The notes under the pieces were generated by a model. That model saw nothing but the letters and a program-made list of their open reading frames with translations. It searched no databases and was not told the DNA's origin. DNA of 64,000 bases, taken from the sequence record PQ850594.1, one strand, 5' to 3'. Made by a program: the position numbers and the translations under genes. Shown in pieces: positions 1,608 to 64,000 of this stretch. Numbering within the stretch: the first letter of the stretch is position 1; every line of letters starts with the position of its first letter. The DNA is from Escherichia phage AnnaHegner_Bas87.

Positions 1608-3851
1608 ATGGCTAAGAAGAAATTTAGTGAAGATGTTTTGGATGAATTACGCGTTGACCTTCAACGTCGATTCAATTATGCTCAAGGCTATGTAGACTTA
1701 GCTGTAAAAGGCTATGCTCGTGAGGCTTGGGAATACTTCTATGGGAACCTTCCTGCTCCAGTTACTGCTGGTAGTTCTAGTTGGGTAGACCGTACAGTAT
1801 GGGAATCAGTGAATGGTACGCTCCAAGATATCATTAACGTGTTCTGTTCTGGTGACGAAGCGGTAACTTTCGTAGCCGATAACCAAGAAGATAGTGATGC
1901 TGCTGACGTAGCCACTAAACTTGTCAACCAAATTCTGTTACGTGATAATCCGGGATACAATATTATCTCTTCAGCGGCACAAGAGTGTCTGGTTACACGT
2001 AACTCTTTTATTAAATATTATTGGGATGAACAAACTTCTACCCAAACAGAAGAAGCAGAGGGTGTTCCTCCGGAAGCTTTGGCTGCATATGTCCAAGGTT
2101 TAGAAGCTGGTGGGCTTCAAGATTTAGAAATCTTTACCACTGACAACGAAGATGGTACAGTGGATGTTAAAGTAACTTACAAACAAACAGTAAAACGCGT
2201 TAAAGTAGAATATGTTCCTTCAGAACAGATTTTTGTTGACGAACATGCTACCTCTTTTGCAGATGCTCAGTATTTCTGTCATCGCACACGTAAATCTAAA
2301 GAAGATCTGGTTGCTATGGGCTTCCCTAAAGATGAAATTGAAGCTTTTAATGACTGGACTGATACAATGGACACTACTCAATCTACTGTTGCATGGTCAC
2401 GTACTGACTGGAGACAGGATACAGATGCTGATATTGGTGTTGACACTGAAGATATCGCAAGTATGGTATGGGTTTACGAGCATTACATTCGTACTGGTAC
2501 GCTCGATAAGAACAAAGAGTCAAAACTCTACCAAGTTATTCAAGCAGGCGAGCATATTCTCTCTTGTGAAGAAGTAACTAGCATTCCTTTTGTAACATTC
2601 TGCCCTTATCCTATTCCGGGTTCATTCTATGGACAGTCGGTTTATGATATTACTAAAGATATTCAGGATTTGCGTACCGCTTTGGTTCGTGGTTATATCG
2701 ATAACGTAAACAATGCTAACTATGGTCGATATAAGGCGCTTGTAGGCGCGTATGACCGTCGTTCTTTGCTAGACAACCGTCCGGGCGGTGTAGTAGAAAT
2801 GGAGCGTCAGGATGCGATTGATCTCTTCCCATACCATAATCTACCTCAAGGTATCGATGGCTTGCTGGGAATGTCTGATGAGTTGAAAGAAACTCGTACT
2901 GGTGTTACTAAACTCGGTATGGGTATTAACCCTGATGTGTTTAAGAATGATAACGCATATGCAACTGTTGGATTGATGATGAATGCTGCTCAGAACCGTC
3001 TCCGTATGGTCTGTCGTAACATTGCTCACAACGGTATGGTTGAATTGATGCGTGGTATTTATAATTTAGTCCGAGAAAATGGTGAGGTTCCTTTACAAGT
3101 ACAAACCCCTCGTGGTATGGTTCAGGTTCATCCTAAACAACTGCCTGCTCGTCACAATCTACAAGTTGTTGTAGCTATCTCTCCTAGCGAGAAATCAGAA
3201 CGTGCCCAGAAACTAATCAGCCTGAAGCAATTGATTGCTGCTGATGCTCAGTTAGCACCTCTGTTTACTCTGGAGCAAGATCGTTACATGACTGCACAGA
3301 TCTTCGAGTTGATGGGAATTAAAGATACTCACAAATACTTAATGCCTCTGGAACAATATCAACCGCCAGAACCTTCTCCGATGGAAATCCTCCAGCTTGA
3401 GATGACTAAAGCACAGGTTGAGAACGTACAGGCTTCTTCTCAGAAGATGATTGCTGATGCATTCGACCAGCGTGAACGCACTACGTTTGAACAGCAGAAA
3501 GCTGCGGACGAGTTCAGCTTACGTCAAGAAGAACTGCAATTTAAGCAAGAGAATGCTGCTGATCAGATGACTTTGGAGAATCGTAAAGAAGACAACAGTG
3601 CTACACTTGAACAGGCTAAGCACAAGTTGGCTCTGCTCCAGCAACAGGTCCGTCAGTATGAATCTGTACTTAAAGAATTGCAGATGACTCTTAATCATCA
3701 GGTCGATGTTGAGAAAGTTGCAAATCAGGCTAAAATTCAAGATAAGACTTTGGAACTCCAAAAGAAAGAAGCAAATGAAACTAAGAAAGAACAGCAAAGT
3801 TCAATCAAAGATTCACGGATTCCTAACCGTCGTCTTGGTAGTAGAAAATAA
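1608..3851 (+). CDS. portal protein (probable)
   Basis: 747-aa ORF directly after terminase with strong RBS (GAGGGAGAG); coiled-coil C-terminal region; position and size typical of portal. Confidence 0.6.
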   Translation: MAKKKFSEDVLDELRVDLQRRFNYAQGYVDLAVKGYAREAWEYFYGNLPAPVTAGSSSWVDRTVWESVNGTLQDIINVFCSGDEAVTFVADNQEDSDAADVATKLVNQILLRDNPGYNIISSAAQECLVTRNSFIKYYWDEQTSTQTEEAEGVPPEALAAYVQGLEAGGLQDLEIFTTDNEDGTVDVKVTYKQTVKRVKVEYVPSEQIFVDEHATSFADAQYFCHRTRKSKEDLVAMGFPKDEIEAFNDWTDTMDTTQSTVAWSRTDWRQDTDADIGVDTEDIASMVWVYEHYIRTGTLDKNKESKLYQVIQAGEHILSCEEVTSIPFVTFCPYPIPGSFYGQSVYDITKDIQDLRTALVRGYIDNVNNANYGRYKALVGAYDRRSLLDNRPGGVVEMERQDAIDLFPYHNLPQGIDGLLGMSDELKETRTGVTKLGMGINPDVFKNDNAYATVGLMMNAAQNRLRMVCRNIAHNGMVELMRGIYNLVRENGEVPLQVQTPRGMVQVHPKQLPARHNLQVVVAISPSEKSERAQKLISLKQLIAADAQLAPLFTLEQDRYMTAQIFELMGIKDTHKYLMPLEQYQPPEPSPMEILQLEMTKAQVENVQASSQKMIADAFDQRERTTFEQQKAADEFSLRQEELQFKQENAADQMTLENRKEDNSATLEQAKHKLALLQQQVRQYESVLKELQMTLNHQVDVEKVANQAKIQDKTLELQKKEANETKKEQQSSIKDSRIPNRRLGSRK

Positions 3852-3860
3852 GGATACTGA

Positions 3861-4097
3861 ATGAATACAAGACAGCAATTCAATAAAGAGCACGCCGCCG
3901 CTTTGGCGGCTCTCAATCACAACGGCATTCTTGACGCAGCATTAGAGGCATTAAAAGAAACCCTCATGAGAGATATTGTATTAACCGAGGCTCATGAGAA
4001 TAAGAAACGCGAAGAGTGTTATCAAAAGTATAAAATGGTTGGTAGCTTAAAAGAGGTCATAAAAGCTGCTATCAATAATGCAGGAGATATTTCCTAA
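3861..4097 (+). CDS. hypothetical small protein
   Basis: 78-aa ORF with RBS, abuts next gene (ATG overlaps stop). Confidence 0.4.
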   Translation: MNTRQQFNKEHAAALAALNHNGILDAALEALKETLMRDIVLTEAHENKKREECYQKYKMVGSLKEVIKAAINNAGDIS

Positions 4098-5179
4098 TGG
4101 CAAATGATTATATTGACCCGAACGATTTTAAATCTTTCCTCCAACTAGACGACTTAAAAGGCTCCTTTAAAGAAGAGCTTAGTCAATTAGAATCAGAACG
4201 TGAACCAGAAGTGAACATTGATGATGAATTCCCAGAACAGTCTGAGACTTTTGATCTTGATGCTTCCGACCTTCTCGGTGATGACGATACGTTAGCGTTC
4301 GAAGATGAAGATGGTTGGGAAGATCGTGAAGAGGAAGGCGAAGAAGAAGAGGAAGAGTCTGAGTTCTCTGATGAAGACGATGAAGAAGATGATTCCGGTG
4401 AAGCAGATCACGATGAAGCTGCTAACAGTGATGAAGATGGCGAAGAAGGTGAAGTCTTTGACGTAGATTATGAAACTGTTATCACCCTTCCTGATGGTCG
4501 TGAGATGACTATTGAAGAGTTGTCTAATGGCTATTTGACTGGTGCAGAAATGTCCGAACGTGAGACTACTTTGCAGCGTCATGTTGAAGCTTTTGAAGAA
4601 CGTGTTTCTGGCTTGGGTGATGTATTAGAACTAGCTGCCCTAGAAGCAGACCGAGTAATTGAAGATTACAACGGTTTTGATTGGGACAAACTCGCACAAG
4701 AAGATCCTCAAGCTTATGTAGAAAATAAACGTTTCTTAGAAAAATATACAGCTCGTCGCCAACAGCTTGAACAAGCTCAGCTTAAAATCAAGCAAGAAGC
4801 ACTAGCAAAAGAACAACAGCTCTTCCAAGCTAAATGTACTGAGTGTGTAAGCGTACTTAAACGTGAGATTCCTAATTGGGATGACAACTTGTATCAGAAC
4901 CTGATGCAGTATGCAATCGACTTAGGTGCTACAGAAGAAGAAGTGCTGAAAGAGAACCGTCCGTCAATCTTCCTAGCTCTACACAAAGCATACCAGTTTG
5001 ATAAAGGTAAGCAGCAGGTGATGGCTAAGATTAAACGTCCCGGCTCTCCACGCAAGGTTGTGAAGTCCGATGCTTCTAAGTCTCGTTCTTCCAATACGCC
5101 AGACAACGCTAAGGTTGCCAAGGCATTCTCAGAGGGTCGTATTCGTCACGAAGACGCATTTAAGTATCTCGTAGATTAA
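4097..5179 (+). CDS. scaffolding protein (probable)
   Basis: 360-aa highly acidic (E/D runs), helical/coiled-coil protein between portal and major capsid. Confidence 0.55.
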   Translation: MANDYIDPNDFKSFLQLDDLKGSFKEELSQLESEREPEVNIDDEFPEQSETFDLDASDLLGDDDTLAFEDEDGWEDREEEGEEEEEESEFSDEDDEEDDSGEADHDEAANSDEDGEEGEVFDVDYETVITLPDGREMTIEELSNGYLTGAEMSERETTLQRHVEAFEERVSGLGDVLELAALEADRVIEDYNGFDWDKLAQEDPQAYVENKRFLEKYTARRQQLEQAQLKIKQEALAKEQQLFQAKCTECVSVLKREIPNWDDNLYQNLMQYAIDLGATEEEVLKENRPSIFLALHKAYQFDKGKQQVMAKIKRPGSPRKVVKSDASKSRSSNTPDNAKVAKAFSEGRIRHEDAFKYLVD

Positions 5180-5219
5180 TCGACAAATTTATTTTTAATA
5201 GTATAGGAGCTAATATAAC

Positions 5220-6275
5220 ATGGCAAATCCAACTTTATTTGTATCTTACGACCAGAATGGTAAAAAACTTTCTTTTGCTAACTGGATTTCTGTCCTGTCT
5301 CCGCAAGACACTCCGTTTGTGTCTATGACTGGTAAAGAGTCTATCAATCAGACTATTTTCAGCTGGCAGACCGATGCTCTGGCGAGCGTAGATGCTAACA
5401 ACGCCCACGTCGAAGGCTCTCGTGCTGAAGATGGCGAAATGAAACCGACTGTAATCAAGTCCAACGTTACCCAAATTCTGCGTAAAGTTGTTCGTGTTTC
5501 TGATACTGCTAACACCACCGCTAACTACGGTCGTGGTCGTGAACTGATGTATCAGCTGGAGAAGAAAGGTAAAGAGATTAAACGTGACCTCGAGAAAATC
5601 TTGCTGTCCGGTCAGGCTCGTACCGATATTCTGGCAGACCAGTATCTGACCAACTCTGCAACTGATCCTGCTGTTGTAGGTCAGAATGATACCTCAGCTG
5701 CTCGTAAGACTGGTGCTTTCCAGTTCCTGTGTGCACACAATGGTGTTACTGGTGGTGTTGTTAAGAAAGAAGATGGTCCTGCTGACCCGGATACTGGTGC
5801 AGTAACTGTTAAAGTTGCACAGAATGCTTCTAACCCGACTACGAACATCGGTTTTGATGAAGCTGATATCTTTGATATGACTCTGCAACTGTATACCGCC
5901 GGTTCTGAAGCAGACATCATCATGATTAACCCTGCTCACGCTAGCATCTTTGCTAAGCTTCAGGAAAACTCTGTTGGTTCTCGTCAGCGTATCTTTGAGA
6001 ACACCAAACAGTTCATCTATGAAGTTAACAGCATCACTGACCCGCTGGGTCAGAGCTATAAAATCATCGTTAACCGTTGGATGCCTGCTGATGCAGTTTA
6101 CTTCTTCCGCAGCTCTGACTGGACTCAGATGGTTCTTCGTGCTCCGAAACGTACTGAACTGGCGAAAGATGGTTCTTACGAGAAATGGATGATCGAAATG
6201 GAAGTTGGTCTGCGTCACCGCAACCCATATGCTTCTGGTGTACTGTTCACCGCTGCGGGAAAGGTGGAGGCGTAA
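5220..6275 (+). CDS. major capsid protein (0-frame product)
   Basis: 351-aa ORF after scaffold with strong RBS; followed in -1 frame by an Ig-like extension. Confidence 0.7.
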   Translation: MANPTLFVSYDQNGKKLSFANWISVLSPQDTPFVSMTGKESINQTIFSWQTDALASVDANNAHVEGSRAEDGEMKPTVIKSNVTQILRKVVRVSDTANTTANYGRGRELMYQLEKKGKEIKRDLEKILLSGQARTDILADQYLTNSATDPAVVGQNDTSAARKTGAFQFLCAHNGVTGGVVKKEDGPADPDTGAVTVKVAQNASNPTTNIGFDEADIFDMTLQLYTAGSEADIIMINPAHASIFAKLQENSVGSRQRIFENTKQFIYEVNSITDPLGQSYKIIVNRWMPADAVYFFRSSDWTQMVLRAPKRTELAKDGSYEKWMIEMEVGLRHRNPYASGVLFTAAGKVEA

Positions 6276-6296
6276 CAGTTGACAGCGTAACTGTTA
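6257..6296 (+). promoter_or_regulatory. -1 programmed ribosomal frameshift signal: slippery heptamer G_GGA_AAG plus 9-nt spacer plus 8-bp stem-loop
   Basis: GGGAAAG at 6257-6263 in capsid 0-frame 10 nt before its TAA; perfect hairpin TAACAGTT (6273-6280) / AACTGTTA (6289-6296); -1 frame stays open to 7630. Confidence 0.6.
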
Positions 6297-7630
6297 GTCC
6301 CGCGTCAGTGGCTATTCTGCTGACCGGGGCTACCCAACAGTTTACAGCTGAAGCAGAACTAAGCGATGGCTCCACATCTACTACAGGCTTCGATTGGTCA
6401 GTAGCCGGTGGTGGGGCCATTTCTGTTTCTGGACTGTTCACTGCTCCGGGTTCGCCTCAAACCGCTGATATTGCAGTGACTGCTACTCTTAAAGGTGTAT
6501 CAGGTACTGCCGTTATCTCGGAAATTAAAGCTCCAATCCCTGACCCAGCTTCCATTGCCGTGACTGGTGGTGGTCTGACTGGTGACACTCTTACCTTAAC
6601 TGTTCCAGATGCTACCAACCTGACTGCTTCTGTATCTCCTGCTGGTGCACCTCAAGGCGTTACTTGGGAAATTGCAGATCAGACTAAGGCTACGGTAACA
6701 ACTGCTGGTCGTGTAACTGCTGTTGAAGCGGGCACTACTACTCTTACAGTTAAATCTTCTACTAAACCTTCTGTCACTAAAGTAATTAACCTTGTTGTTA
6801 ACCCCCAGCCTCCGACTATCGTAGCTAAAGCTGCTATTACTGGAAAATCTGGTGGAGATACCGTTGCTTTTACAGACATGTTTACCGTCCAACGCTCGGC
6901 TGCTAGTGATTATACTTTTGTAGTTACTCCAACTGCTGCTGGTACCGTGAATGCGTCCGGTCAGCTCTCTTTAGCTAGTACCGCTAGTGGTAACGTAACT
7001 GTTAAAGCTACTCACAAGACAGAAACATCTGTTACTGCAACTGCTAATATTAATGGTGTAACCCCTCTCCCAACGATTGAAGCGAAAGCTCCTATCACTG
7101 GTAAAGTAGGTGGTTCTACCACTGCATTCACCACCATGTTTACAGCAACCAATTCAGCTGCGTCTGACTACAATTTCGTAGTAACTCCAACTGAAGCAGG
7201 TACTGTAAGTGCTGCTGGTCTTCTGACCTTAGCTGACAGTGCTAGTGGAGATGTTACAGTAAAAGCTACTCATAAAACCCAGACTTCAGTAACTGCAACT
7301 TCTACCATAGAAGACGTAATACCTAAACTTACTGGTTTAGTTGTTTCAGCAGTGTCTGATGGGTCAGTAGCTGGTGATACTTTGACAATCTCAGACCCAA
7401 GCCAACCGGGAGTTTTTAACATAGCTTCTGTTCCTCAAGGTGCTCCACTAGGAACTATCGTATATGATGTAGAAGGCACAGATGCAGACAAATTGAGTAT
7501 TACCATTTCTGGTGATGCTTTAACAATTACGCTCTCTGGTGCTATCGCTAGTGAAGATACTAAAGTAACCCTGAGAACTGACCCAGGTTCTACAGTGTTC
7601 AAAACCTACACCGTTAAATCTGGTGCTTAA
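6257..7630 (+). CDS. -1 frame C-terminal extension of major capsid protein with Ig-like (Big_2-type) domains
   Basis: open -1 frame from slippery site; Big_2-like sequence (VTVSPASVAILLTGATQQF...) and internal repeats; no independent RBS at the in-frame Met 6185. Confidence 0.55.
   Translation, partial: GKGGGVTVDSVTVSPASVAILLTGATQQFTAEAELSDGSTSTTGFDWSVAGGGAISVSGLFTAPGSPQTADIAVTATLKGVSGTAVISEIKAPIPDPASIAVTGGGLTGDTLTLTVPDATNLTASVSPAGAPQGVTWEIADQTKATVTTAGRVTAVEAGTTTLTVKSSTKPSVTKVINLVVNPQPPTIVAKAAITGKSGGDTVAFTDMFTVQRSAASDYTFVVTPTAAGTVNASGQLSLASTASGNVTVKATHKTETSVTATANINGVTPLPTIEAKAPITGKVGGSTTAFTTMFTATNSAASDYNFVVTPTEAGTVSAAGLLTLADSASGDVTVKATHKTQTSVTATSTIEDVIPKLTGLVVSAVSDGSVAGDTLTISDPSQPGVFNIASVPQGAPLGTIVYDVEGTDADKLSITISGDALTITLSGAIASEDTKVTLRTDPGSTVFKTYTVKSGA
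6812..7327 (+). repeat. tandem duplication, 2 x 258 bp (86-aa units) within capsid Ig-like extension
   Basis: units starting PTIVAKAAITGKSGGDTVAFTDMFT... and PTIEAKAPITGKVGGSTTAFTTMFT... are clearly homologous. Confidence 0.6.
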
Positions 7631-8486: not shown

Positions 8487-11264
8487 ATGATCGTTTATAA
8501 CAACCAAGCACCAGCTAATCCTAATAATGTTGGTCAGTTTGGTGCTACAGAAGGCTCTATCGGAGCCTATAAACAAGCAGCGGAATATGCTGCTGATTCT
8601 AAATATTGGGCACTTTTAGCAGAATCTAAGTTTGGGACAATTGATGATCTGATTGCACAGGTAGAGCGTCTATACCAACAAGGTGTTTTACTCCGAGAAG
8701 ATATTGAAGATTTGAAGCAGGATTTTGCTGCTCAAGACGTTCGCTTAATGAACCTGATTGCTCAAACAAACGCTGCTGTTGCAGATGCCAATAACTCAGT
8801 TGCACTTATTGATCAAAAGATTGTAGAAGTCCAGAAGCAATTGGATATTCTAATGGATATGAAGGTTACTGTCACTACCCTGCCTCCGGGTTCTCAAGCT
8901 ACTGGCTCTTTTGATAACCAAACTGGTGAGATTAAGCTGGGAATTCCTGAGGGTGAAAAAGGTGCAGATGGCTCTGTAACTGACTTATCAACAGTATCTT
9001 CTGGGGTTCCCGAGTTAGGGGATTTAGGTTTTTATGTAGACAAAGATGATAACACTGTACATAAAACCACCCTAGAAAACATTGCTAACCTGATCCCTTC
9101 TGTTCGCTCTATCTCTGTCAATGGTGGAGAGGCTCAGGATGGTGACGTTGCTTTGGATATTAATAAAACCACAGTAGGTTTAGGTAATGTTCTTAATGTA
9201 GCTCAGTACAGTCGCCAAGAGATTAATGATAAGTTTGACAAACCTATTAAGATTTATCAATCCAAAGCAGAAGCAGATGCAAATGCTCAATATCGTCAAG
9301 CCGGAGAATCTGTTTTAGTTTGGGAAGACACTCAGTATGTATTCTACACTGTTGCTGCTAATAAAACCTTAACTCCAGTTAAATCTGAAAGTCGTATATT
9401 GACAGTAAACTCAAGATCTCCCGACTCTACAGGTAATATTGATATTACAATACCTACAGGGAACCCTTCTCTATATTTGGGTGAAATGGTAATGTTTCCA
9501 TATGACCCTAACAAAACTGTAGCATACCCCGGTGTGTTGCCTGCTGATGGTAGATTAGTTTCTAAAGAAAACGCATCTGACTTAGGTCCATCTCTTGTTA
9601 GTGGACAGTTACCAGTAGTTAGCGAAACCGAGTGGCAAGCTGGTGCTAAACAATATTTCTCTTGGGGTAAGTTAGCTGATGGTATCACTGATGCAGACTC
9701 TACCAACTTCATTAATATTCGACTTCCAGACTGGACTGGTGGAGAAGCCATTCGTGCTCCAGATTCTATTAAAGACTCTAATTACAAAGGTCGTATCCAG
9801 AATCAGATTCCTTACATTGTGACCGTAAATGGTAAAGGTCCAGATGATGCTAATGGTAATGTGGTATTATCTGCCTCTAATATCGGAGCAGCTGCTTCTG
9901 GCGCTAACTCGGATATCACTTCACTCTCCGGTTTAACTACACCACTATCTCCAAGTCAAGGTGGTACAGGGGTAACCGATCTTGGAATGCTTCGTAGGGC
10001 TATTCTAGTTCAGGGTGTAGAGTGTAATGATCAAGCAGGTCCACAGTCTTATAACAGCTACAAATCCCCTAATGGGACATATACTTTTAAAGTTGATAAC
10101 TCTGGGTTAGTTGCTGCTATTAATACAGGCACAGAAGCAGTTGTTCCTTTTGCAGTAAGTGCAGGAGGTACAGGAGGCACTACTCCGGCTGAATCTCGTA
10201 GTAATTTAGGGCTTGACAGGGTTGATCAAAGAGAATTAGAGACTGTAATCTACTCTCCCGACAAGAACTCCTATATCTTTATGAACAACGGAGATTGGGG
10301 GTGCTTTAGTAATGTTTCAGGGACTATAGCTCTTTCTATTCCGCGTGGTGGTACAGGTGCACAAAGTGTTGAGGGAGCTAAAACTAATCTCGGAATCGAT
10401 AAGTTTGTACAAAGTTCTACGGATACTAAGGTGTTGGATGGTGAAGGGACTCATACATTCTTTGTAGCCGGAAATGATTGGGGGTATTTTAATAACGCTG
10501 ACTCTGTACGAGTTGCGCTTCCTGTAATAAGTGGCGGTACAGGAGGCACTACCCCAGCTCATTCATGCGAAAATCTATCTGCGCTACACACTCAATATGG
10601 AGCTGACACTTTTTATGGTAGTGAAGATTTACCTTCTGGAATAGGTTTTTATTCTGGTGACTCTTCTCCTTTTCCGGGAGGCAACGGGGCGCCTTACACT
10701 TACGCCGAAATTATGACTATCGCTGAAGGTGGTCGTGGTGGTAACTGGTCTCAGATTGGTTTCTCTACTATAACTAACCAAGCTCCTCGGTATCGTCAAA
10801 GAACTAATGACCCAGCTTTAATTACAAACTGGAGAGATTTCTTAATCCGAGATTTAAACACAACAGTAGATGTTAATGGTTTTGTCAAAATAGCGTCGCC
10901 TATTGTGAAAGTTAAGTCTGACGGCTCTTTTGAAGTTAACGATGCAGCGGTTGGTGCGACAGTAGAGAAGCTGGGGGTTGGTATTTATAAGGTTTCTGGT
11001 GTCTTAGGTTTTAACTCTGACCCTTCTTGGGGAGGGACTTCTGGTGGATTCTCAGTTCCTTACAACTCTAACGGATTGGCTCTGCTCTGGGTCGACTATG
11101 AGATTGAAGAAACTGGTGATATTATCCTGAAAACCTACCATCGTGTCCATGCTGATGCTCCTGTTTTTGCTAGAAATGAAATAGATGGATTAGCGGATGG
11201 GGATCCTGTAGATATTCCAGAAGGTCGGTGGATTGATCTTCGTGTCGAAATGCCATCCAAGTAA
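8487..11264 (+). CDS. tail fiber protein with repeated GGTGG-T motifs
   Basis: 925-aa ORF; N-terminal coiled coil; recurring ...SGGTGGTTPA.S..NLG.. segments typical of phage fiber repeats. Confidence 0.55.
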   Translation: MIVYNNQAPANPNNVGQFGATEGSIGAYKQAAEYAADSKYWALLAESKFGTIDDLIAQVERLYQQGVLLREDIEDLKQDFAAQDVRLMNLIAQTNAAVADANNSVALIDQKIVEVQKQLDILMDMKVTVTTLPPGSQATGSFDNQTGEIKLGIPEGEKGADGSVTDLSTVSSGVPELGDLGFYVDKDDNTVHKTTLENIANLIPSVRSISVNGGEAQDGDVALDINKTTVGLGNVLNVAQYSRQEINDKFDKPIKIYQSKAEADANAQYRQAGESVLVWEDTQYVFYTVAANKTLTPVKSESRILTVNSRSPDSTGNIDITIPTGNPSLYLGEMVMFPYDPNKTVAYPGVLPADGRLVSKENASDLGPSLVSGQLPVVSETEWQAGAKQYFSWGKLADGITDADSTNFINIRLPDWTGGEAIRAPDSIKDSNYKGRIQNQIPYIVTVNGKGPDDANGNVVLSASNIGAAASGANSDITSLSGLTTPLSPSQGGTGVTDLGMLRRAILVQGVECNDQAGPQSYNSYKSPNGTYTFKVDNSGLVAAINTGTEAVVPFAVSAGGTGGTTPAESRSNLGLDRVDQRELETVIYSPDKNSYIFMNNGDWGCFSNVSGTIALSIPRGGTGAQSVEGAKTNLGIDKFVQSSTDTKVLDGEGTHTFFVAGNDWGYFNNADSVRVALPVISGGTGGTTPAHSCENLSALHTQYGADTFYGSEDLPSGIGFYSGDSSPFPGGNGAPYTYAEIMTIAEGGRGGNWSQIGFSTITNQAPRYRQRTNDPALITNWRDFLIRDLNTTVDVNGFVKIASPIVKVKSDGSFEVNDAAVGATVEKLGVGIYKVSGVLGFNSDPSWGGTSGGFSVPYNSNGLALLWVDYEIEETGDIILKTYHRVHADAPVFARNEIDGLADGDPVDIPEGRWIDLRVEMPSK

Positions 11265-34690: not shown

Positions 34691-34699
34691 TATACATTA
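34691..34699 (-). promoter_or_regulatory. phage promoter-like motif TAATGTATA (minus strand)
   Basis: ~60 nt upstream of start 34631. Confidence 0.4.
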
Positions 34700-57375: not shown

Positions 57376-57998
57376 AATGATTCCACCAACTCTACATTAT
57401 ATGATGACAGGTCTGAAGAAATATGCTTGAACTTCTCCAGAAGGTTTAAAGATTGACGACCATTGTCGCCATAACCAGCTTCAAGAAGCACGTTTCCAAC
57501 GTAAGCCCCTTTGTAATAAACTTTTCCATCGACAGGATTGATATAGATGAAACGAGTAACCAACCCTTCAAACTCTGGATTAAACAGGTTGTACACCAAA
57601 TCACCCGGAATCGAACGTCCGAGAGAAGGTGGAGTACCACGAAGTTTATTCCCCATCAAGCCTTTAGCTCGCTGACGAACAGGGTTGATATGGGTCCAGC
57701 TCACCATGTTATTACCATGCTGAAGGTATCCTACATCTGGAGACTCCAGAATGAGGCTGTGATCAAACACTGGGATATTACTAACAATCTGACGTTCAAA
57801 CTGACCTTCGGAGTTTTTAGTCCAGCGTTCCGCCTCAAACACTAAAGACATTTCAGCGTCGTGTGAGTAGTCGTCAATATCAAAGTTACCTTGCTGACGA
57901 ACATCAAGCACATATAGAGGGAGGTTTTTACCATCAGGTGATCGCTGGGCAATCCATGTTCCACAATAATAGTGTTGAAAATCTCTTAACAAGCTCAC
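57372..57998 (-). CDS. hypothetical protein (cassette member)
   Basis: 208-aa ORF overlapping neighbours by 4 nt. Confidence 0.45.
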   Translation of the reverse strand: MSLLRDFQHYYCGTWIAQRSPDGKNLPLYVLDVRQQGNFDIDDYSHDAEMSLVFEAERWTKNSEGQFERQIVSNIPVFDHSLILESPDVGYLQHGNNMVSWTHINPVRQRAKGLMGNKLRGTPPSLGRSIPGDLVYNLFNPEFEGLVTRFIYINPVDGKVYYKGAYVGNVLLEAGYGDNGRQSLNLLEKFKHISSDLSSYNVELVESL

Positions 57999-58007
57999 AA
58001 TATCACC

Positions 58008-58859
58008 TTATACAATCTGGAGTTTAGAGGAGAATTTATCCGCTTCTTTAACATCGTTACTGTTGATGATGTTGTGAAGCTTTTCAATTGGAAGGCGAGA
58101 ATGAAGTGACATCAATACTTCCATATCACAGCCTTGAACAACCTTATCAACTTGCTCATAAACAAACTTGCGGGTTGACTTCTCGCCAATCCAGAAGTTA
58201 GAAAGAGAACGATATTCAATACCGTAATCTTTGTAGCGAATGGCAGAAGCCTTTCCGTATAACTCTTTACGACGAGTGTCTTTATCCATGATCACAGCTG
58301 GCAAGGACAGGAAGTAATCACACAACACACCCAACATCATTTGAGTCTGACGACTAATTTCCAGCGTACCAGTGACGCCAAGGTGAACATGACCGCCAGC
58401 AGTACGCAGACCTTTGTCTGTCGCTACTGGAGATGGGTTTTTCTGACCAGTGAAGGCGTTGAAATCAGGAGTACAACCAAATACAAAAGCTGACGGGTGG
58501 AATGATTCAAGCTCTTCTGAAGTGAACACATGAGAGCTAATCCCAAGCGCTGCTTCCAGACCACGATCATTCAGGATTTTGTTAGTCAGATCAATACCAC
58601 GCTGAATATTATCATCAAACGCTTCAAATCCTTTCTGTGGGTTAATATCGAATTCAGCCAGAACGTTGTCTTCTTGAAGACGAACATCAGGGGCCAGATC
58701 AATTTTGTTGTCTTTAGAGCAGCCCAGCTTACCAGCCACAGAGGTGATAATACCAGAAGCAGTACGAACAAACATTTCAGGGTCAGAACCAATAAGGAAA
58801 GCACGCTTAGTCATTGTAATACTCCACGAGTTCATCAAAAAGGGAAACAACACGAGCAC
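58008..58859 (-). CDS. GS-like carboxylate-amine ligase (amidoligase) candidate
   Basis: ...RTAGGHVHLGV... motif; probable start MTKRAFLIG at 58814 overlapping upstream stop (AATGACTAA). Confidence 0.45.
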   Translation of the reverse strand: MLVLFPFLMNSWSITMTKRAFLIGSDPEMFVRTASGIITSVAGKLGCSKDNKIDLAPDVRLQEDNVLAEFDINPQKGFEAFDDNIQRGIDLTNKILNDRGLEAALGISSHVFTSEELESFHPSAFVFGCTPDFNAFTGQKNPSPVATDKGLRTAGGHVHLGVTGTLEISRQTQMMLGVLCDYFLSLPAVIMDKDTRRKELYGKASAIRYKDYGIEYRSLSNFWIGEKSTRKFVYEQVDKVVQGCDMEVLMSLHSRLPIEKLHNIINSNDVKEADKFSSKLQIV

Positions 58860-61521: not shown

Positions 61522-61762
61522 ACAACCTCTTCTTTGAACTTAAAAAAGGACTCTCATAAGAGAGCCAAGCTTTAAGGCCAATTAAATAGATATCACCCAA
61601 TATCTGTGGATAACCTGCTCTTAAAATATTCTATCCGACGGATGTTCGAGGATTATTCCTCTCCCTAGCATCGGCCCCATACGGGAAAGATTAAATTAAG
61701 ATTAGGTTAGTTGAGCCAGAATAGCTCACATAGCCCTCTGATACTCACGAGGGCTATAGATG

Positions 61763-62014
61763 TTACTCTGTATCTCCGTCGAAGCGGAGGATTGCTGTCG
61801 GAACAGGAATAACTGCCATGTCAATCTCTAAACGGAAGAGATGACCTGTGCTCAACTGAACTGCTGTTACCGGCTTAGCGATACCAGCAACAGAGGCAGA
61901 AGGGATTCGGATAAAGAATTCCCCCGGATATTCAACCGAACGAAACACATCTCCCGGTGTCATATCTTTTACTTGAACAGTAGGCTCAGGAGGTGTTTTA
62001 TTGGAAATTTGCAT
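61763..62014 (-). CDS. hypothetical protein
   Basis: 83-aa ORF. Confidence 0.4.
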   Translation of the reverse strand: MQISNKTPPEPTVQVKDMTPGDVFRSVEYPGEFFIRIPSASVAGIAKPVTAVQLSTGHLFRLEIDMAVIPVPTAILRFDGDTE

Positions 62015-62247
62015 TACAAACCTTTCTTAGCACGATCTTTGGCAGTCTTGCCAGTGCGAATACGGTGGGAAACATTAACCAGTTCGCCGCCTTCGACGAT
62101 GGTTACGCTTTTATTTTTCGCAATATCGAATACAGTCTTCTCTGTACCGCCCAGACGAATCTGTTTAGGTTCGCTGTGGGTCTGAGTTGATTTAGACTGG
62201 AACTGGAACGGCTGACGGATGGCATCAATTGCGCTAACTTTAGACAT
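62014..62247 (-). CDS. hypothetical protein
   Basis: 77-aa ORF with AAGGTAA RBS. Confidence 0.4.
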   Translation of the reverse strand: MSKVSAIDAIRQPFQFQSKSTQTHSEPKQIRLGGTEKTVFDIAKNKSVTIVEGGELVNVSHRIRTGKTAKDRAKKGL

Positions 62248-62274
62248 GCTTTATTACCTTACATTAAAGAGAGA

Positions 62275-62703
62275 TTAAACAACAAATTGGAACGCTTCGT
62301 ATCCAAACTTGTATGAGAAGTCATGCTTGAATTTCACTACACGACCACGATCACGGAAAGATTTCAGACGACTAATAAAGCCAGCCATCGGCTCAGGGTC
62401 AATAGGGCTACGAATCTTCATAGCTACAGAGTGCAGCTTGAAGCGTTTACCAGTGCTACAGGCCATCATCACATACTCCATACGAGTAGTCCAGATGTTG
62501 AGCACCATGCTTGTTTTCTCCGCTGACCAACCAGTCTTGCGGGCGATTTCTTTATGGACATTAAGCTCCAAAGGAAGAGGGAATTGCTTGTTGAATGAAG
62601 CCGGATATAGCTTGACCAGAAGGTCAATGTTTTCTTTATACGTTAAGTAAGCCAATTTCTTGCTTACGTTAGGGAATTTCCCAGACATTTTTTGAAGCTC
62701 CAA
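62275..62703 (-). CDS. hypothetical protein, possible ProQ/FinO-like RNA-binding domain
   Basis: ...LYPASFNKQFPLPLELNVHKEIARKTGWSAEKTSMVLNIWTTRMEYV... loosely fits FinO/ProQ pattern. Confidence 0.35.
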   Translation of the reverse strand: MELQKMSGKFPNVSKKLAYLTYKENIDLLVKLYPASFNKQFPLPLELNVHKEIARKTGWSAEKTSMVLNIWTTRMEYVMMACSTGKRFKLHSVAMKIRSPIDPEPMAGFISRLKSFRDRGRVVKFKHDFSYKFGYEAFQFVV

Positions 62704-62887
62704 AACAGCGCCGAAAAGAGAGGCGTCATAGTAGCTAAAGGGAGGAGAGAAGAGGGATTATTTACTTACCTTTTTCTGTCCATTGATATACCAGATAACT
62801 GAACCGTCAGGCTGTCGTTGACCGAAGCCTTTCAAGTTAACCATTTCTTCTTCAGAGTAGGCACGTTTTCTCACTGAGTTTCTCCTG

Positions 62888-63145
62888 TCAATAGAAGGTG
62901 TGTGTAGAGTCATCGTTCATACATAACCAAACGAAGAAGACAATCACACAGAAAGCAATAACACCGAGAACTGCAAGGATTATAGTGTTAGCTAATGTGG
63001 TATCTAACACGCTTTGCAGGTACATAAAGAATTGTACGATACCACATAACCCTAGCACGACCCCAACGACAATGAGGAGCCAATATGTGCAGAGAAGGAC
63101 TGCATCTAATAGTGATACATACTTTGGATGATCTTTATGTCTCAC
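62888..63145 (-). CDS. small membrane protein (2 TM)
   Basis: 85 aa, two hydrophobic helices. Confidence 0.4.
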   Translation of the reverse strand: MRHKDHPKYVSLLDAVLLCTYWLLIVVGVVLGLCGIVQFFMYLQSVLDTTLANTIILAVLGVIAFCVIVFFVWLCMNDDSTHTFY

Positions 63146-63401
63146 TGATCTTTTCCACTAAATCCAGAGTTGCTGATTCAAATACAACACCAACTACCAT
63201 ATTAGGTGCCATATTACGAACGTATCCGCTCTGCATAGACACGGCCCGAGAGTATTCAGAACCGTTAGAACTTTTGTTTACCTTCATGTAAAGGGTTTGC
63301 TCTTTATCTTCTTTCAGAGTAAAGAAAGAGCCGGGAAGAAGCCTCTGAACAGTCAGAGGGATATCTGCAACATGAGTCTTATTGATAGTAAGAACTGTCA
63401 T
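63135..63401 (-). CDS. hypothetical protein
   Basis: 88-aa ORF. Confidence 0.35.
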   Translation of the reverse strand: MTVLTINKTHVADIPLTVQRLLPGSFFTLKEDKEQTLYMKVNKSSNGSEYSRAVSMQSGYVRNMAPNMVVGVVFESATLDLVEKISET

Positions 63402-63404
63402 TGC

Positions 63405-63659
63405 TTATTCCTTAATAGTTGCTTCAGCTTTAATAGGAATAACAGCAACATCTTTACGAGGTGCGGTCGCTCGACCTGTGTTAAGGCAGGCTACAAGTCT
63501 GTGCTCATCCGCACCTTTAATACACAGTCGAGTTGAGAACTCGGTAGATAGTAAGATGTACAAATCGTCATCTTCACTGTTAGGATACATGAAGCAATCC
63601 CCAAGACGCAGAGCGCTGAGTGGTATTGCGTTCTTACTGGCTGGTTTATTAACTTTCAT
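63405..63659 (-). CDS. hypothetical protein
   Basis: 84-aa ORF; most upstream minus-strand gene in window. Confidence 0.35.
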   Translation of the reverse strand: MKVNKPASKNAIPLSALRLGDCFMYPNSEDDDLYILLSTEFSTRLCIKGADEHRLVACLNTGRATAPRKDVAVIPIKAEATIKE

Positions 63660-64000
63660 TTTACCACCTTTAGTTATGGACCAATTTATGAGAGAACTCT
63701 CGGAAGAATGCTTTCATAAATAGGGGGAGGGGACGAATCCTCCCATATCCTATTAATTAATGTTGCATGTAAGACCTAACAATCCGATGCTGTAGTGGAT
63801 AGCGTAAAACGCTTACCGGCATTAAACCCAGCCCATGAGGGGCTTATGTGATTAAAATGCTCAACATTGAGCGGTTAGTTGATAGGAGATCTGAAGTCCT
63901 ATCTCAAAGGACTCTCGTAAGAATCCTTCACGATATCACTTAGTAAGAAAGATTATCAACTTATCCGCTACCCAGCCTATTAACATAAGGACAGGTAAGA

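Follow-up and report, generated by a model that had tools for sequence, protein, structure and literature searches.

Does a lytic phage make use of an RNA chaperone of its own and, if so, on which RNAs would it act? The question is raised by a small minus-strand open reading frame (ORF) at positions 62275..62703 of a 64,000-nt stretch of Escherichia phage AnnaHegner_Bas87 (PQ850594.1), an E. coli podophage of the Gordonclarkvirinae/Suseptimavirus type that resembles phiEco32; the whole analysed stretch is called the window below. Bacteria have three major families of small RNA (sRNA) chaperones, of which the FinO/ProQ proteins form one; its phage members have come to notice only through automated annotation and a single line in a review. 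An original prediction, made from the nucleotide letters and a list of ORFs, had proposed with low confidence that the ORF encodes a protein with this domain. The results described here identify a real gene, under strong purifying selection, for a divergent and minimal FinO-domain protein of a phage-restricted subfamily, in which the 3′-nucleotide pocket is conserved. The reading that we favour is that the protein would be made early in infection, bind terminator-type 3′ ends, and stabilise or remodel RNAs.

The gene and its start codon

Direct reading of the minus strand confirms a 142-aa ORF that begins with TTG and contains the peptide segment quoted in the original prediction. The ORF exists as described, and its 142-aa product is probably not the actual protein. 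In particular, the TTG (62703-62701) overlaps a Shine-Dalgarno GGAG (62698..62701, minus strand) that sits 9 nt upstream of an ATG at 62688, and relatives annotate the 414-nt form (SU7_91 in SU7, Bas86_0087 in Bas86, and ECBP2_0092), with a ribosome binding site (RBS) also annotated for the gene in SU7. These three features favour the ATG, so that the coding sequence (CDS) most likely spans 62275..62688 on the minus strand, encodes 137 aa plus a stop codon, and is orthologous to SU7_91 and ECBP2_0092. Residue numbers below count from this ATG unless stated otherwise.

The gene is 100% identical in nucleotide sequence to Bas86_0087 of the BASEL phage Bas86, and the surrounding region is 92-94% identical to SU7, ECBP2, EK010 and UKE3. 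When the window and five non-identical relatives are compared pair by pair, the ratio of nonsynonymous to synonymous substitution (dN/dS) is 0.06-0.19, with dS between 0.05 and 0.29 and dN between 0.009 and 0.027, and nearly all amino-acid replacements fall outside the domain core.

A divergent, minimal FinO domain

Profile, fold and homolog searches make the FinO/ProQ identity of the domain almost certain. The Pfam model PF04352 (ProQ/FinO) matches residues 23-92 of the 142-aa form with E=1e-5 and 25.9 bits, where the gathering cutoff is 27. Searched exhaustively with HMMER, 1.84 billion representatives yielded 43 homologs, 42 of which match Pfam ProQ with E-values down to 1e-26; word-indexed homolog searches returned almost nothing. 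A profile built from the resulting family alignment matches every solved FinO domain in the PDB and nothing else of note: the best match is the N-terminal domain of E. coli ProQ (5nb9, 2.2e-17), followed by RocC (7rgu, 3.8e-13), FinO (1dvo, 1.5e-11), Lpp1663 (6s10, 3.6e-11) and NMB1681 (2.5e-8). A single-sequence phmmer search against the PDB gave no relevant match. The domain call also pre-exists in automated annotation, where the 90% cluster of the protein bears a precomputed PF04352 call and UniProt names both the 98%-identical SU7 ortholog and the Salmonella phage 7-11 protein "ProQ/FinO domain-containing protein"; in PHROGs, the protein falls in families of unknown function.

Structure prediction leads to the same assignment. 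AlphaFold2 run with the family alignment yields a mean predicted local distance difference test (pLDDT) score of 92.4 and a predicted template modelling (TM) score of 0.85; this model replaced a single-sequence one that was unusable (pLDDT 48). When it is compared with the PDB by Foldseek, the best 26 matches are all FinO domains with a probability of 1.0, beyond which E-values exceed 1, and the TM-scores on target for RocC chains are 0.63-0.73. The predicted model contains the FinO fold, a helical core plus a beta-hairpin, with core helices at residues 10-27, 44-52, 56-68, 70-79 and 98-110 and hairpin strands at 81-83 and 93-95. By model and alignment, this core occupies residues ~10-110 (62359..62661, minus strand) and carries the N-cap residue S55 and the pocket residues T67, Y72 and R82. 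The domain assignment of the original prediction was therefore borne out by hidden Markov model, by profile matches to solved structures and by predicted fold.

About 97-98 of the 137 residues align structurally to solved FinO domains. Since the profile match stops at position 112 of 159, and a further helix is predicted at residues 114-128, residues 111-137 (62278..62358, minus strand) form an extension beyond the matched region, specific to the clade and composed of this helix and an aromatic tail. The Pfam scan found no match in the protein to the Tudor-like C-terminal domain PF17516, and ProQ-like proteins with that domain turn up only as distant matches. At 137 aa, without this domain and with no more than a short helix added, the protein is not ProQ in the strict sense. 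Weak Pfam and NCBIfam matches to DUF7343 and to ribosomal protein L31 were sub-threshold and were set aside as noise.

Conservation of the 3′-nucleotide pocket

The roles of individual residues were taken from the RocC-terminator crystal structure paper (PMC9674577) and applied through an anchored alignment. The pocket Tyr/Arg pair (RocC Y87/R97, ProQ Y70/R80) corresponds to Y72/R82 and is invariant in 42/42 family members, while the pocket Thr (RocC T82) corresponds to T67. The helix N-cap Ser (RocC S70, ProQ S53) is S55, a position at which 35 of the 43 members have S, T or D. Moreover, the clade has invariant or near-invariant residues of its own, namely R69 (42/42), W66 (41), E71 (40) and Y17 (39). 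The protein is strongly basic, with an isoelectric point (pI) of 10.0 and 24 Lys and Arg residues against 11 Asp and Glu.

Judged from these residues, RNA binding is likely, and the combination of a conserved pocket with a basic composition suggests that the ligand would be a hairpin followed by a 3′ tail, as in an intrinsic terminator. The original prediction had described an RNA-binding regulator acting on host or phage RNAs; this reading is supported, and within it the binding of RNA and the nature of its targets are what we infer.

Transcriptional context and timing

The ORF list and the annotation of relatives place the FinO gene within a putative transcription unit of seven small ORFs (61763..63659, minus strand). 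Upstream of it lies a sigma70-like promoter (63930..63959, minus strand; TTGATA-18-TATCGT with TG) that is conserved in Suseptimavirus relatives. In phiEco32-like phages, the leftward cluster of the right arm constitutes the sigma70-dependent early class, while middle and late promoters bear a tAATGTAtA element, the mapped middle promoter being P68. The FinO gene, at 62.3 kb, belongs to the leftward right-arm cluster and is upstream of the position that is syntenic to phi32_91/90. On the minus strand of the window, exact copies of the tAATGTAtA (gp36-type) element occur only at 34691 and 41041; the gene lies far upstream of the last of them (41041) and downstream of the sigma70-like promoter. 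Given the right-arm synteny with phiEco32, the position of the gp36-type elements and the upstream promoter, the gene is predicted to belong to the early class, a prediction that synteny supports. A place among the earliest genes, as originally predicted, is an overstatement, because the gene sits mid-way along the early arm.

Structured RNAs at both ends of the operon

A 240-nt gap without ORFs (61522-61762) closes the operon and contains a structured non-coding RNA (ncRNA), termed R1 (61542..61760, minus strand). R1 consists of a 158-nt core (61603-61760), then an extra hairpin, an intrinsic terminator hairpin (61566-61549) and a U6 tail. The gap is near-invariant among relatives with a coding divergence of 6-8%, including phage 4E8, which has no FinO gene, and its folding z-score is -4.0. 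Further, within the 20 kb that were scanned, no hairpin on the minus strand other than the R1 terminator has an uninterrupted U6 tail, and the flanks of this terminator (pyrimidine-pyrimidine mismatches followed by A-U pairing with the tail) agree with the rules for ProQ-type ligands. By blastn, R1 occurs in 103 phage records, comprising all Gordonclarkvirinae examined and, at 70% identity, the Salmonella 7-11 group; the phiEco32 copy lies between phi32_91 and phi32_90.

An alignment of 11 R1 sequences supports the predicted structure. Across 62 pairs, 98.7% of the cells are paired, compared with 37-54% when the partners are slid; 11 pairs show double compensatory changes, compared with 0-3 in the slid controls; and 0/500 shuffles reach the observed value on four of five measures. 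The loops GCUAGGG and CAUCCG are invariant. No Rfam family matches R1, and there is no gathering-level Rfam match in the window; the best match by E-value, STnc100, is spurious, being partial and scoring 19.7 bits against a threshold of 47. A separate observation concerns helix 7, which is closed by A...G in the window, SU7, ECBP2, phiEco32, WFI101126 and SeKF_80, and by C...A in Paul, Bas93, NJ01, myPSH2311 and 7-11. This A.G to C.A covariation at alignment columns 117/132 (window ~61656 and ~61641) suggests that the helix is flanked by a conserved non-canonical pair.

At the other end of the operon, conservation and folding delineate a second structured element, R2 (~63690..63925, minus strand), ending in a hairpin GGGAGG...CCUCCC at 63744-63725; it is the operon's 5′ leader or else an independent sRNA. 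R2 is near-invariant, folds with z=-2.9, and has 41 predicted pairs, 7 of them with compensatory changes. It is found in 149 phage records, which include N4-like Gamaleyavirus (Schitoviridae) at 68-81% identity. No Rfam family matches R2, and the idea that it mimics a host sequence was rejected on finding 0 matches in 5,426 E. coli genomes.

R1 and R2 have in common a 5′ hairpin architecture, invariant loops and the UCAACUAACC motif. In addition, a covariance model of the R1 core finds full-length copies in the N4-like phages ECBP1 (stretch 1274-1413) and G7C (1193-1333), in each case directly upstream of an R2-type copy and beside tRNA genes. A covariance-model-guided alignment shows covariation in 19/44 pairs and 7/7 helices, with 97.6% of cells paired against 36-48% when slid and 0/500 shuffles matching on any of five measures, figures that are biased towards structure by the fitting of the alignment to the model. 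A window-wide search for the motif TCAACTAACC, present in both RNAs, found only two exact copies, one per RNA, and an overall count not above chance. Sequence and architecture together indicate that R1 and R2 probably represent one multi-copy ncRNA family, with R2 a paralog of R1. The family is common to Gordonclarkvirinae (including Kuravirus), Salmonella 7-11-like and N4-like phages, and corresponds to no Rfam family; literature searches returned no report of ncRNAs in these phages. With strong covariation support, multiple copies and a range spanning three phage families, it would constitute a new class of phage ncRNA regardless of protein binding, is probably more novel than the FinO protein itself, and merits its own study.

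Two observations extend this picture. The tandem R1-R2 pairs of the N4-like phages occupy a CDS-free stretch of ~2 kb. A further R1-like paralog occurs in Bas86 (stretch 2422-2559), beyond the right end of the window and ~4.5 kb upstream of the FinO gene, where it underlies a 55-aa 'hypothetical protein', Bas86_0102, that may be a mis-called ORF.

Distribution among phages and comparison with known FinO proteins

According to tblastn searches, the FinO gene is present in 21 E. coli phage records of the Suseptimavirus type at an identity of at least 95%, and has relatives of 29-41% identity in Salmonella 7-11-like, Erwinia phiEa21-4-like, Aeromonas LAh and Shewanella KASIA phages, a handful of them annotated as ProQ or RNA chaperone. 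Other family representatives lie on phage-sized metagenomic contigs, and BFVD contains ~11 viral cluster representatives with the FinO fold. Alignment with Kuravirus 4E8 shows a clean cassette of this one gene, present or absent between flanking genes that are conserved. A lytic phage's use of its own RNA chaperone is directly testable in this system, because the E. coli phage is tractable, Bas86 is identical across the gene, the cassette consists of a single gene with natural presence/absence variants, and candidate ligands are adjacent.

One comparison is with other members of the same phage-restricted clade, namely G0X555 of Salmonella phage 7-11, gp115 of Erwinia phage phiEa21-4, gp040 of Aeromonas phage LAh_8, p031 of Shewanella phage KASIA and a protein of rhizobiophage phiM9. 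These have either 29-41% identity or the same fold, usually lie in early or non-structural gene blocks, and are in some cases automatically annotated as ProQ/FinO or 'RNA chaperone'; however, several carry added C-terminal domains (227-234 aa), and their genomic neighbourhoods are unrelated. The KASIA genome paper describes phage FinO members as rare and places the KASIA copy in an early block, and a 2023 review mentions phage-encoded members only in passing. As for the neighbourhoods, the FinO homologs of Salmonella phage 7-11 (stretch 2983-6351) and Erwinia phage phiEa21-4 (17201-20462) lie within 1-2 genes of NAD-salvage genes, which encode ribose-phosphate pyrophosphokinase and the nicotinamide phosphoribosyltransferase NadV. 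Phage 7-11 bears a second FinO-fold protein, G0X575.

Among cellular proteins, E. coli ProQ is the best profile-to-sequence match, with Y70/R80 aligned to Y72/R82, and represents the paralogous function of the host. Identity to the solved domains of N. meningitidis ProQ (NMB1681, 3mw6), L. pneumophila RocC (7rgt/7rgu) and Lpp1663 (6s10) is only 16-19%. Unlike these three, the window protein is phage-encoded, has Ser in place of the N-cap Arg (RocC R75) and Asn in place of the beta-turn Gly, carries the extra C-terminal helix and aromatic tail, and has candidate RNA partners only. It resembles the plasmid proteins FinO, FopA and PcnR in bringing a FinO domain onto a mobile element, those being small basic proteins that act with element-encoded RNAs. 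In contrast to them, it has no plasmid homolog by tblastn and no evident cis-antisense partner, and the long N-terminal helix of plasmid FinO is absent.

Proposed mechanism and competing explanations

We assign a probability of roughly 0.6 to the favoured reading. Under the mechanism that it proposes, the host-sigma70-type promoter would drive early synthesis of a small basic (pI 10) FinO-domain protein, which by analogy with RocC, ProQ and FinO would clamp the base of an intrinsic-terminator hairpin; the Y72/R82 pocket would bury the 3′-terminal nucleotide, and the N-terminus of the S55-capped helix would read the phosphate backbone. As the likeliest consequence, the 3′ ends of early phage transcripts would be shielded from 3′ exonucleases and polyadenylation, including the operon's own 3′ end, a conserved structured RNA that finishes in a hairpin and U6. 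Help with RNA-RNA pairing is a second possible consequence. We offer the protection of phage transcript 3′ ends as the main role tentatively, at somewhat less than even odds.

Several observations weigh against this reading. The single-sequence Pfam score lies slightly below the gathering cutoff. The N-cap Arg site (RocC R75, ProQ R58) is occupied by Ser60, and the phage clade varies there (S13, R7, G5, N4 and A4 among 43 members); this position is ~80% Arg across the family, and the R75D substitution in RocC lowers affinity more than 100-fold (PMC9674577). As Arg is frequent there rather than absolute, its loss is read as divergence and not as exclusion. The near-universal beta-turn Gly (RocC G52, ProQ G37) is replaced by Asn43, where the phage clade has Gly in 38/43 and Asn in 3/43 members; Asn is also compatible with turns. 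Owing to Ser60 and Asn43, the RNA affinity or binding mode may differ from that of canonical FinO domains, and the divergent N-cap region could reveal how FinO domains tune specificity. Further, the gene is absent from phiEco32, 4E8 and most Kuraviruses, so the phage lineage can do without it. Searches of the literature turned up neither a characterised phage FinO protein nor any data on expression, binding or phenotype, so that the phage branch stands without experimental characterisation in the literature found. Lastly, R1 and R2 occur in phages without a FinO protein, and FinO proteins occur in phages without these RNAs.

This last point bears most directly on the proposal that the protein is a dedicated chaperone of R1 and R2, forming a ribonucleoprotein (RNP) or promoting target pairing as in FinO-FinP, FopA-Inc and RocC-RocR. 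The operon has a member of a strongly covarying RNA family at each of its ends, 5′ and 3′, and one of the two, R1, terminates in a hairpin and U6 with ProQ-type flanks; Salmonella phage 7-11 has both R1 RNA and FinO homologs; and the characterised FinO proteins of mobile elements usually have one or two dedicated RNA partners. However, the RNAs are found in ~100-150 phage genomes, most of which (Kuravirus, N4-like Gamaleyavirus) have no detectable FinO homolog, and no R1 is present within 20 kb on either side of the FinO genes of the Erwinia, Aeromonas and Shewanella phages. Since most phages with the RNAs lack the protein and three unrelated phages with the protein lack a nearby R1, there is no signal of co-inheritance. 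The link between the FinO protein and R1/R2 is circumstantial, the two RNAs are plausible ligands, and an exclusive partnership is improbable. The bolder proposal, in which the protein together with a 5′ R2 and a 3′ R1 with its terminator forms a phage RNA-chaperone/ncRNA module for host takeover, is equally doubtful; if true, this would be the first case of a FinO-based riboregulatory RNP in a virulent phage.

A host-takeover factor that mainly binds host RNAs, and competes with or replaces host ProQ, is unlikely too, if a little less so. It might act on ProQ-dependent sRNAs, on type I antitoxin RNAs and on mRNA 3′ ends, and its effect would be to rewire host post-transcriptional control or to preserve labile antitoxin RNAs once the phage has shut off host transcription. 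The gene's position in the early arm among small genes of host-takeover type is consistent with such a role, as is its occurrence as an accessory single-gene cassette, a pattern typical of host-range or counter-defence genes. The host has ProQ, whose ligands are terminator hairpins of a kind that the conserved Y/R pocket could recognise, and the phiEa21-4 and 7-11 homologs adjoin NAD-salvage genes. However, the divergent N-cap region suggests a specificity unlike that of ProQ, and a search with the upstream element detected nothing near the gene that derives from or mimics host sequence. Least probable is a function apart from RNA, with a degenerate FinO fold reused for DNA binding or protein-protein contact, for example through the C-terminal helix. 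The loss of the canonical N-cap Arg and beta-turn Gly, the conserved C-terminal extension to which no role is assigned, and the winged-helix DNA binders among the weak background fold matches would fit such a function. The invariant Y72/R82 pocket stands with the favoured reading, that of a terminator-binding FinO-domain protein.

Neighbouring features

The other genes of the operon gave no functional clue in Pfam or PHROGs. Three proteins of ~84 aa around the FinO gene, encoded on the minus strand at 63405-63659, 63135-63401 and 61763-62014, cross-match PHROGs 7832, 12612 and 6570, and look like a paralogous family by sequence. The spacer upstream of the FinO RBS (62689-62757, minus strand) also occurs in phages without the FinO gene. 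Upstream of the RBS, a 4-bp GC stem with a U-tract, annotated as a terminator in 4E8, proved no better than shuffled sequences (z=+0.37). Inside the gene, an antisense RNA ending at a terminator-like site on the plus strand (62612-62627) was rejected, the site being weak and lacking a matching promoter, and no antisense promoter and terminator across the gene made a convincing pair. Finally, the 'COOH.NH2 ligase' CDS of Bas86 is annotated as two joined pieces enclosing an HNH endonuclease ORF (stretch 9890-11198), which suggests an intron with a homing endonuclease, and collinearity would place a window counterpart at ~57500-58800 on the minus strand.
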